From: Erysipelotrichaceae bacterium
Lineage (GTDB): Bacteria > Bacillota_I > Bacilli_A > RFN20 > CAG-826
Length of the DNA stretch: 64,000 nt
Assembly (NCBI GenBank): GCA_015059105.1
Contig: SVBB01000004.1
Coordinates: forward strand, 5,144 to 69,143
Reading direction: 5' to 3'
Shown here: positions 40,977 through 42,661 of the stretch, one piece after another
Numbering within the stretch: the stretch's first letter is position 1
Layout: each line of letters starts with the position of its first letter
Position numbers and translations under genes: made by a program
Notes under the pieces: generated by a model
The model's input: only the letters and a program-made list of their open reading frames with translations
The model's database searches: none
Told to the model about the DNA's origin: nothing

Positions 40977-42416
40977 ATGGCAATAAGTGATTTAACTGCT
41001 CGTTTCACAGACGAAAAATATGCGTCTAAAAGCGAAGTGATGAAAGAACTCGGCACTTCCTTAGTCGACAATATCTGGTCCAATATCTTGGCATATCGTC
41101 GTAGCAAATATATTAAGACGACTTTAAAATGCCTCGATTCTAGCGATTTGGTCTTATATAAAGGAACAGGAATTGAAAATCTCGTTTCTTCGTTTGAAGA
41201 AAAGCTTTCTCATTATATTTCCGAATGCGAATTATTCAGCGATGATGAAAGATTATTTGAACAGTTTAAGATCAACTGCAATGCGAATGTCATCTCCTAT
41301 TTATCAAGTTTCCATAAACAAGAGAAAAGTGAAGCTTTATCACGTGGGCTCGTTCAAGGAACATTAAAACCCAATAATGATATCGATATGTTCCTTCTTA
41401 GATATAAGAATGCTTTGGATAACTTGAATAATGATGATATCAACGAAGAATTCATCCTCAGGCTCCATAATCTCGTCTCTGGTCGTAATGATGGATATCG
41501 TCGTAACGATGATAATTCTTTGACTAACCGCGTTTTAATCGATAGATTATATAGCTCCGCAAAAGCGAGTTATATTCCGCTTTTCATCAATCAACTTATT
41601 AATTTTATTAATAACAGTGAACTCCCATTCGTTTATAAAGGGATTATCGCTTGCTATTATCTCAATTTGATTAAACCATTTAGCGATTATAATGAAGAAG
41701 TTTCTTTACTATTATTAAAAGCGATTTTGATGAATGAAGGAGTTGGCCCACTTATTAAAATCGTTCCTTTAGAGAAGGTGCTTAACCGCCCAAGTGACGA
41801 ACTTAGCAAAATGCTAAATGACTCTCAAAGATATTCAGATGTCACTTATTTCTTATATCATTCCATCCATTCTTTCTCGCTTGCCTGCGAAGAGATCAGC
41901 GATTATCTCGCTTTATTTAAGGGCAGCGTGATGAGAGAAGAATCATATCAAGAAGATGAGGTTCTTCAAGATGATCTTCTCCATGAGGAAAAGGTTGAAA
42001 CTATTGAACTCGTCCCAGAAGAAAAGGTTGTTGAAACTCCGAAAGTTGAAGAAGTTAAACCTGTTGAGCCAGTGGTTAAAAAGGAAAAGAAAGTTAAGCC
42101 TGTCAATGAAGAGTTGCAACCTACATTTACTGGAATAGCAATAAATGTGGTCACTCCCGAACTCGATGAAAACGAGGCGAAAAAACTTGAGAAACAACTC
42201 TTAGAAACTGACCCCTTATTACGTAAAGGGGAGGCGAAATTCTATGCGCGCCACTGCGTGCTTGGAAGAAACTATACAATCCAACAATTTAAGAAAACTA
42301 ATAACTGTGCGTATGAAACTGCTAGAACTGGAATGGATCATCTAGTAGAATTAGGTTATTATCGTAAAGGCGCGATTAAGAACAAATTCATCTACACGCC
42401 GATCCCAAGGAGGTAA
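40977..42416 (+). CDS. Fic-fold protein with a degenerate active-site motif, a K/E/V-rich low-complexity linker and a C-terminal wHTH-like domain
   Basis: IKPFSDYNEEVSLLLLKAILMNEGVGPLIKI aligns to the Fic core IHPFxDGNGRxxRLLxNLxLxxxGYPPIxI. The catalytic His and the GNGR are replaced. A repeat-like EEKVETIELVPEEKVVETPKVEEVKPVEPVVKKEKKVKP follows, then a basic C-terminal domain. Confidence 0.5.
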   Translation: MAISDLTARFTDEKYASKSEVMKELGTSLVDNIWSNILAYRRSKYIKTTLKCLDSSDLVLYKGTGIENLVSSFEEKLSHYISECELFSDDERLFEQFKINCNANVISYLSSFHKQEKSEALSRGLVQGTLKPNNDIDMFLLRYKNALDNLNNDDINEEFILRLHNLVSGRNDGYRRNDDNSLTNRVLIDRLYSSAKASYIPLFINQLINFINNSELPFVYKGIIACYYLNLIKPFSDYNEEVSLLLLKAILMNEGVGPLIKIVPLEKVLNRPSDELSKMLNDSQRYSDVTYFLYHSIHSFSLACEEISDYLALFKGSVMREESYQEDEVLQDDLLHEEKVETIELVPEEKVVETPKVEEVKPVEPVVKKEKKVKPVNEELQPTFTGIAINVVTPELDENEAKKLEKQLLETDPLLRKGEAKFYARHCVLGRNYTIQQFKKTNNCAYETARTGMDHLVELGYYRKGAIKNKFIYTPIPRR

Positions 42417-42421
42417 TTATT

Positions 42422-42661
42422 ATGATATTCGCGAGCTATGCTGGACAAGCATTCATGATTCTTGGAATCATTTTAGGCGTGATGGTGGTCATCGCTTTAA
42501 CAGCCTTTATTATCTATCGCATTTCTCATCCAAAATTAAAACAAGATGATAAACCAGAAGAATCTCAGATTGTCGATGAGGAACTTAACCGTATCTTAAA
42601 ACCAATCGATGATGACGAAGTAGCGAAAGAAGTTGAACAATATCAAGACAAGGATGAATAA
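42422..42661 (+). CDS. Small single-TM protein with an acidic C-terminal tail
   Basis: The ORF is 79 aa. A hydrophobic helix (AFMILGIILGVMVVIALTAFIIY) is followed by a D/E-rich tail. The ORF starts 5 nt after the Fic-like gene. Confidence 0.4.
   Translation: MIFASYAGQAFMILGIILGVMVVIALTAFIIYRISHPKLKQDDKPEESQIVDEELNRILKPIDDDEVAKEVEQYQDKDE

Follow-up and report, generated by a model that had tools for sequence, protein, structure and literature searches.

What does a Fic protein do once its catalytic motif has been lost, and what keeps such a gene between two housekeeping genes? This question is raised by a gene on contig SVBB01000004.1 of an Erysipelotrichaceae bacterium (GCA_015059105.1), from which we analysed a stretch of 64,000 nucleotides (hereafter the window). 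The gene lies between lepA and hemW, encodes a 479 amino acid (aa) pseudo-Fic protein, here called pFic, and is followed by an open reading frame (ORF) for a small membrane protein of 79 aa. Fic proteins have been studied almost solely as enzymes, namely AMPylases, kinases and phosphocholine transferases, and a Fic sequence whose motif has degenerated is commonly passed over as probably inactive. Here we find that pFic and its small partner make up a fixed core locus, under purifying selection, across a large clade of uncultured gut Bacilli, with a conserved promoter and TTAGTA direct repeats directly upstream, and we tentatively favour the reading that pFic, without being catalytic, binds DNA and autoregulates the operon comprising pFic, the small protein gene and hemW.

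The relationship of pFic to Fic proteins is faint at the level of the single sequence, which matched the Pfam Fic model at E = 3e-4 (22 bits, under the gathering score of 24 bits), gave no match in an NCBIfam scan, and retrieved a FICD homologue (5jj6, E = 9.6e-6) in a phmmer search of the PDB. With the family profile, 4rgl was retrieved at E = 3.9e-9 and FICD homologues followed at about 1e-6, the PADLOC SoFic model matched pFic at E = 1.6e-11, and Pfam Fic matched 21 out of 34 family members; Pfam DUF4172/Fic_N gave no match. The AlphaFold2 model of pFic, with a mean predicted local distance difference test score (pLDDT) of 81.5 and confident outside residues 327-394, retrieved SoFic (3zcn/3zec/3eqx) in Foldseek with an E value of about 1e-7 and a probability of 1.0, together with CbFic2 (8cil, E = 2.6e-7) and 4rgl, the hits to these three ranging from E = 1e-7 to 1e-6, and with 7cb8 and 7xux; the alignments span about 425 columns, and FICD follows at about 1e-4. 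The predicted structure places pFic in the Fido/Fic superfamily and gives it the architecture of the SoFic/CbFic2/CccR class, in which a Fic core (about aa 130-325) is followed by a C-terminal winged helix. The Fic-core similarity proposed by the initial annotation, which had been made from the letters of the sequence, is solid by family profile, PADLOC model and predicted structure, and profile and structure searches alike recovered the Fic fold.

The catalytic loop, by comparison with the solved enzymes, is replaced throughout the family. KPFSDYNEE of pFic stands opposite their HPFTDGNGR in the HMMER alignment, and among 87 species-level sequences the His position is occupied by Lys (64), Arg (21) or Gln (2), with the motif consensus [KR]PFxx[YF][SN][DE]E; for the family overall, the consensus reads [KRQ]-P-F-x-x-[YFH]-[NS]-[DE]-[EL]. 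P234, E241 and K248 are invariant in a 34-sequence alignment, in which the catalytic position is never His. K248 stays nearly invariant across the wider family, where 241 sequences carry K/R/Q/M/D/E/A/V and a single H (P0196) at the His position; N, W, L and S likewise occur at this catalytic-base position in the family. None of 123 further representatives showed the canonical motif, one of them (P0300) having a His in an otherwise degenerate loop. Moreover, bulky aromatic and acidic residues stand where active enzymes have the glycine-rich anion hole, Glu or Leu takes the place of the Arg, and the inhibitory (S/T)xxxE(G/N) motif is absent from the pFic family, with the region aligned to TVAIEGN of FICD poorly conserved, as well as from the small partner. 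Because both the catalytic His and the anion-binding GNGR loop are lost, AMPylation by pFic is unlikely, as had been suspected from this one sequence, and the alignments point to a pseudoenzyme whose catalytic loop has been permanently replaced.

P0196 and P0300 are the only members, two of about 450, with a His at the catalytic position. P0196 (locus L089, 6001-7395) reads HPFEEGNLE, retaining H..GN without the G-R, and keeps the synteny of lepA, pFic, small ORF and hemW, and P0300 reads HPFEKYNDE with the whole GNGR missing; they may be evolutionary intermediates or reversions. With the degenerate motif family-wide and the G-R lacking in both of these sequences, a sequencing error and pseudogene status are both ruled out. 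The degeneracy is specific to the pFic family: a divergent relative of 54% GC (L088, 8851-9684) carries an extra 277-aa Fic gene with the canonical motif HPFADGNTR immediately after hemW and ahead of hrcA, at most 1.5 kb from its pFic gene, so that active Fic proteins still exist in the clade.

Could pFic nevertheless be an enzyme with altered chemistry, e.g., a Lys/Arg-dependent transferase or kinase? Fido domains with altered motifs do perform other chemistries, as in the kinase Doc and the phosphocholinating AnkX, both diverged from AMPylation, and the conserved P-F, the conserved N/S of the loop and the nearly invariant K248 would suit such a protein. We consider this very unlikely, however, given that the residue at the position of the catalytic base varies, that the former anion hole is now bulky and has lost its Arg, and that the inhibitory/deAMPylation Glu motif is missing.

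The family is large and confined. A homologue search returned more than 460 full-length relatives with 35-82% identity, all from metagenome-assembled genomes labelled Erysipelotrichaceae or Bacilli bacterium, and when each GTDB species was scanned through one genome, at least 442 species proved to carry relatives, the best 80 of which are all from uncultured gut or rumen Bacilli. Searching from the most divergent member widened the family to include ‘Candidatus Enteromonas sp.’ and identities down to 24%, and in an exhaustive search of 1.84 billion representatives, 285 clusters (at 50% identity) reached E <= 1e-30, with no more than 1,565 passing the looser limit of E <= 0.001. The members have full-length, indel-free cores with many invariant residues. 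In loci from species whose pFic is 31-43% identical to that of the window, we read the gene order fmt, DinG-like helicase, lepA, pFic, small ORF, hemW, in some cases an RDD protein gene, and hrcA-grpE-dnaK-dnaJ. lepA lies immediately 5’ of pFic in all 71 loci with enough sequence, and hemW lies 3’ of it in all 76. A plasmid database search with the pair gave no matches, and a PHROG search gave weak matches only, to entries of unknown function. The pair is a fixed core locus under purifying selection and neither mobile nor recently inserted. The initial annotation had the two ORFs, their distance of 5 nt, the single transmembrane helix and acidic character of the partner and its place between lepA and hemW right; its view of the pair as an insertion that interrupts lepA-hemW does not hold, as the same position is fixed across the whole clade.

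The same evidence bears on the suggestion, also made at the outset, that the pair is a degenerate toxin-antitoxin-like system, or a remnant of SoFic-type anti-phage defence that has decayed and lost its current function. Such an origin could account for the PADLOC match, and a small adjacent ORF superficially resembles a toxin-antitoxin pair. Yet roughly 285 clusters and at least 442 species with intact cores at an invariant chromosomal position, an unremarkable base composition of the pair, no plasmid and only weak PHROG matches, and a partner that is encoded downstream, anchored in the membrane and devoid of the inhibitory motif leave this explanation with hardly any credit; conservation and synteny effectively rule out a toxin-antitoxin system, a defence system or a mobile element.

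The spacer between lepA and pFic (median length 83 nt), which lies outside the coordinates of the initial annotation, contains a further conserved part of the locus. In the window, the first of three TTAGTA repeats includes the lepA stop codon TAG (Table 1), and TTAGTA-N5-TTAGTA has its sole exact occurrence in the 64 kb here, with looser matches elsewhere at chance level. The consensus of the repeat element, tTAGTatAAAATTAGTAGTTTTTTAGT, is present in 74 of 75 loci with two to four repeats each, and is kept in genomes of 52-54% GC. When 736 kb of loci were scanned allowing at most one mismatch, 128 of the 191 matches to the element lay within 200 nt upstream of pFic, and all the others were mismatched. 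Downstream of the repeats, TTGNNN-(16-18)-TANNNT occurs in 67 of 79 distinct loci as compared with 12% of shuffled sequences, with a spacer of 17 nt in 45 loci, and the -35 box sits 7-9 nt past the repeat element in 56 of the 67. The distance from the central repeat to the TTG of the -35 box is 23 ± 1.4 nt (within 1 nt in 51 of 55 loci), and the distance from the central repeat to the lepA stop codon has a standard deviation of 9 nt. Since the distance to the -35 box is fixed, and the element is specific to this site and conserved, we read it as a promoter-locked cis-regulatory site with predicted centres at about -47, -58 and -69; a 3’ feature or terminator of lepA is unlikely, as the distance to lepA varies and that to the -35 box does not.

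Other features of the spacer were considered as well. The 11-nt period puts the TAG triplets of the three window repeats in all three frames, with the complements giving TAA on the other strand, so that the element also forms an all-frame stop block just after lepA, which is probably incidental. The palindrome overlapping the -35 region recurs at the same place in many loci with different sequences (GCACCtatGGTGC, CTTGTaaaACAAG, GTTGTTATATAACAAC), and its enrichment is modest (mean stem 5.15 versus 4.34 in shuffles), for which reason we do not count it as a strong feature. A simple terminator scan of the spacer found none, and an Rfam scan of the whole window gave no matches, so no known riboswitch or leader lies upstream of pFic. 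Control of pFic by HrcA through the controlling inverted repeat of chaperone expression (CIRCE) was rejected, as CIRCE elements are found at hrcA and hsp20 only.

Investigating the modules of pFic, we observed that constraint is strongest in the C-terminal module, the most conserved part of the protein, which holds 25 of the 43 positions that are nearly invariant across the wider family. Its median isoelectric point across the family is 9.3, its predicted topology is H-H-(b)-H-H-b-b, and the global Foldseek alignment includes the winged helix-turn-helix (wHTH) architecture of the SoFic type, in line with the basic, wHTH-like C-terminus described initially. Within this module H426, C427 and C444 (aa 426-444, 42252-42308) are invariant in the core clade, with conservation of H455 at 90% or more. 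These residues hint at a metal or redox site, but we dismissed such a site at H426/C427/C444, the Cys residues not being conserved in the wider family. The preceding linker is 31-115 aa long across the family with a median net charge of -8. Its charged, disordered, E/V/P/K-rich character was recognised from the start, but it had also been called a repeat, and since Tandem Repeats Finder detects no tandem repeat in the linker DNA, it is better described as compositionally biased low-complexity sequence.

At the other end of the protein, a highly conserved N-terminal module (R9, F10, Y15, D31, W34, Y40, R41) is followed by helices that lead towards the Fic core, with long ones at aa 64-87 and 91-112 in the monomer model; in the SoFic class, an N-terminal helix mediates dimerisation. 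Modelled in isolation (pLDDT 73.7), this module found nothing significant in Foldseek (best E 0.88), its weak, non-significant matches being mostly winged-helix DNA-binding domains; a sequence-profile search against the PDB returned no significant match, and hhalign detected no relation between the N- and C-terminal modules. In the Fic core, R175 of the region equivalent to the flap is invariant (240 of 240 in the wider family), and the region itself is modelled with isolated bridge residues only and low confidence (block pLDDT 58).

The conserved flap region, the position of lepA and the kinship with SoFic could be combined in a different reading, in which pFic, itself non-catalytic, binds or regulates a translational GTPase and docks onto LepA/EF4 (or EF-Tu) through the flap and the surface of its Fic core, the partner possibly holding LepA at the membrane. 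The closest structural relatives of pFic are of the SoFic class, SoFic itself targets the G domain and barrel I of EF-Tu, docking on switch I, by β-flap augmentation, and the catalytically dead SoFic H198A holds the modified target more stably; in addition, lepA is the immediate upstream gene without exception and a membrane anchor would be on hand in the small partner. We nevertheless regard this as unlikely. Between lepA and pFic there is a conserved promoter, and pFic is coupled more closely to hemW than to lepA. The adjacency to lepA may be incidental, because lepA and hemW are commonly adjacent in Firmicutes that have no pFic. Identity to SoFic is just 11-13%, the acidic nucleotide-binding loop makes the trapping of an AMPylated target improbable, and the winged-helix module, not the Fic core, is under the strongest constraint.

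The small partner has one transmembrane helix (aa ~10-32), followed by basic residues and an acidic tail with the conserved motif EELxRxLxPxxD...Y, in which R57 is invariant (85 of 85). By the positive-inside rule, the protein would be oriented N-out/C-in with a cytoplasmic tail. The small ORF was found by BLAST in 82 of 83 loci, also in divergent subclades, and in the remaining locus (L082) inspection revealed a divergent ORF with a transmembrane segment and an acidic tail at the same place; a homologue search with the partner itself retrieved close relatives only. Its Shine-Dalgarno sequence sits within the final codons of pFic, and hemW, with its ATG at 42654, shares 8 nt with the end of the small ORF (ATGAATAA), with comparable overlaps, or gaps of at most 11 nt, between the cistrons of other loci.

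This tight coupling of the three cistrons at the level of translation, the constant presence of the partner and the position of hemW downstream in every locus might indicate that pFic and the small protein form a membrane scaffold or accessory complex for HemW, in heme or iron-sulfur handling, with the winged-helix-like module making protein-protein contacts instead of binding DNA. We give this reading little weight. It leaves the promoter-locked TTAGTA repeats unexplained, and the basic, conserved wHTH-like module, together with the precedent of SoFic, CccR and CbFic2, favours nucleic-acid binding. To our knowledge, no link between a Fic protein and HemW is known.

How pFic relates to characterised Fic proteins is informative in this respect. 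SoFic of Shewanella oneidensis (SO_4266; 3eqx/3zcn), its best structural and profile match, likewise consists of an N-terminal region, a Fic core and a C-terminal winged helix, and as a dimer SoFic binds DNA specifically in the 100 bp that precede its own start codon (bioRxiv 10.64898/2026.07.09.737422). Unlike pFic, SoFic has an intact HPFxDGNGR motif and the inhibitory Glu and both AMPylates and deAMPylates EF-Tu, whereas pFic has neither the His, the anion hole and the Arg nor the inhibitory motif and possesses an additional conserved N-terminal module, the long disordered linker, a dedicated membrane partner and a fixed housekeeping locus. The SoFic defence system of PADLOC comprises an active Fic protein, usually in a variable or defence-island context, in contrast to the hidden Markov model match, dead motif and invariant housekeeping position of pFic. 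CccR of Yersinia pseudotuberculosis combines a Fic core with a C-terminal helix-turn-helix that autorepresses via repeats near -35/-10 of its own promoter, and its regulatory and toxic activities are independent (PMC9755527); because this regulation is separable from catalysis, a dead Fic protein of the class could still be a transcription factor. CccR, however, is an active FtsZ-AMPylating toxin secreted by the type VI secretion system and recognises 10-bp inverted repeats spaced 26 bp apart, in comparison with direct hexamers of 11-bp period upstream of the -35 box at the locus of pFic, which is not a toxin. CbFic2 of Coxiella burnetii (8cil), a class II protein with DUF4172-Fic-wHTH architecture, binds DNA as well (PMC10628234), but it is a DNA-stimulated (de)AMPylase of histone H3 with the canonical motif and the inhibitory Glu, and it has no membrane partner and no lepA-hemW context.

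More distant systems differ further. The metazoan BiP AMPylases FICD/HYPE and Fic-1 resemble pFic significantly in sequence and fold of the Fic core, yet FICD is an active enzyme with a TPR region and an N-terminal transmembrane segment. The pFic gene lies a few kb upstream of hrcA-grpE-dnaK-dnaJ; these heat-shock genes have their own CIRCE-controlled promoter, and we found no evidence of a link between pFic and DnaK. In VbhT/VbhA and Doc/Phd, a Fido-fold protein also stands beside a small protein, but these small proteins are soluble antitoxins, which provide the inhibitory helix or imitate it, and modules of this kind are mobile and patchily distributed, as opposed to the conserved membrane partner lacking the inhibitory motif and the fixed locus of pFic. 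Since the catalytic and inhibitory motifs that define them are absent, pFic should be placed neither with the Fic enzymes nor with the SoFic defence proteins or the toxins of toxin-antitoxin pairs.

Four observations make autoregulation the most likely role of pFic: CccR, SoFic and CbFic2 set precedents, constraint is concentrated in the basic winged-helix module, the gene and the TTAGTA element strictly occur together, and neither the recognition helix nor the repeats vary. The initial annotation had also offered a regulatory Fic derivative, which fits these data and is strengthened by the promoter-linked repeats. According to this reading, pFic, the small membrane protein and hemW would be transcribed together from their own sigma-70-type promoter in the lepA-pFic spacer. 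pFic would bind the two to four TTAGTA direct repeats, one helical turn apart at about -42 to -70 of this promoter, via its winged-helix module(s), the long flexible linker allowing the DNA-binding modules to reach tandem sites, and this binding would regulate the operon, the repeats being a candidate operator or activator site. The dead Fic core would then sense or dock by binding a protein or a ligand, and the membrane partner might sequester or modulate pFic with its acidic cytoplasmic tail.

We hold this reading with reserve, as several points weigh against it. The C-terminal module alone gave no significant match to a solved wHTH in a sequence search against the PDB, so its winged-helix assignment rests on predicted topology and the global fold alignment. 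Recognition helix and repeats are invariant even in the outlier L082, which makes co-variation uninformative. The repeats are direct, whereas CccR binds inverted repeats as a symmetric dimer, and the A/T-rich element may instead be UP-like or serve a different regulator. Furthermore, the promoter is a consensus match only, our view of a regulon spans the 64 kb of this genome and about 9 kb per relative, and autoregulation by itself leaves the retention of the Fic core and the membrane partner unexplained.

Taking these last two components into account, pFic and its partner might constitute a new kind of signalling pair, in which a pseudo-Fic transcription factor re-uses its dead Fic domain as a sensing or docking module and the partner, through its acidic tail, controls at the membrane whether pFic reaches the TTAGTA operator. 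Although doubtful at present, this extension would, if true, couple the status of the membrane, of heme (HemW) or of translation (LepA) to operon expression, and would make pFic the first housekeeping, non-catalytic regulator of the Fic family, in a large clade of uncultured gut Bacilli with reduced genomes.

Beyond the pair itself, the surrounding block is rigid with one variable spot. The upstream block (33079-39067) is conserved with the locus in distant relatives too, and the DinG-like helicase of one of them (L003) shows a weak PD-(D/E)XK match at its N-terminus. Downstream of hemW, the window carries on the minus strand (43790-46595) an hsp20 gene and a 615-aa alpha-amylase/CBM26 lipoprotein-like gene, followed by hrcA-grpE-dnaK-dnaJ; at this hemW-hrcA junction most relatives have a small RDD-family gene or nothing (L001, L087, L090), and L005 carries GH77 and LRR genes there, among others. 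Four CIRCE-like inverted repeats (TTAGCACTC-N9-GAGTGCTAA, 1-3 mismatches, chance expectation 0.02) lie at 44207-44280 and 46693-46765. Two of them flank a perfect 12/12 sigma-70 promoter (46707-46734) 5’ of hrcA and the other two lie upstream of the divergent hsp20 gene (43790-44185, minus strand), because of which hsp20 appears to be part of the HrcA regulon here.

Table 1 Coordinates of the pFic locus and its upstream neighbours in the window (SD, Shine-Dalgarno sequence).
Feature	Position	Strand	Basis or remark
AMP-binding/PP-binding gene, divergent	33079-35097	-	
Metallophos_2 phosphoesterase	35094-35735	-	
fmt	35751-36731	+	
DinG-like DEAD_2/Helicase_C_2 helicase, 779 aa	36728-39067	+	start overlaps fmt stop by 4 nt
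lepA (EF4 translational GTPase)	39087-40901	+	ORF; LepA_C/GTP_EFTU Pfam assigned in related loci
Three direct TTAGTA repeats, 11-nt period	40898-40903, 40909-40914, 40920-40925	+	candidate operator or activator site
Short palindrome ATTGTTT-T-AAACAAT	40930-40944		overlaps -35 region
Predicted sigma-70-type promoter	-35 TTGTTT 40931-40936; -10 TAAACT 40954-40959	+	17-nt spacer
SD GAGGTG	40966-40971	+	
pFic, 479 aa, catalytically degenerate SoFic-class Fic protein	40977-42416	+	ORF, Pfam, PDB searches, structure model, PADLOC
pFic N-terminal module, aa 1-62 (three helices and β-hairpin)	40977-41162	+	alignment, model
pFic flap-equivalent region, aa ~174-196 (YR...NRVLIDRxYxSAP)	41496-41564	+	aligned with flap region of FICD homologues
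pFic degenerate Fic motif KPFSDYNEE, aa 233-241, replacing HPFx[D/E]GNGR	41673-41699	+	alignments
pFic predicted disordered acidic E/V/P/K-rich linker, aa 326-394	41952-42158	+	pLDDT <50 for aa 327-394
pFic predicted C-terminal winged-helix module, aa 395-479, basic	42159-42413	+	predicted topology, global fold alignment
Small partner, 79 aa	42422-42661	+	ORF; starts 5 nt after pFic
hemW-type radical-SAM/HemN_C gene	42654-43748	+	Pfam Radical_SAM 4.6e-29 and HemN_C

Literature searches returned no description of the pFic family, its partner, the locus or the TTAGTA element, beyond general remarks that some Fic and Doc clades without key residues may be inactive (PMC4454073). For Fic specialists, pFic is a moderately surprising pseudo-Fic, and it is not a new class of system. 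As a conserved single-copy gene at a fixed locus in hundreds of species, with its own partner and cis element, it offers a natural case for asking which role the Fic fold can play without catalysis, and it supports the idea emerging from CccR and SoFic that DNA binding by proteins of this class can be a role in its own right. In addition, it raises the possibility that hemW, a gene with an unclear role in these anaerobes, receives regulatory input. Together, the predicted promoter, the candidate operator and the candidate regulator may provide a first functional handle on an abundant lineage of uncultured rumen and gut Bacilli.

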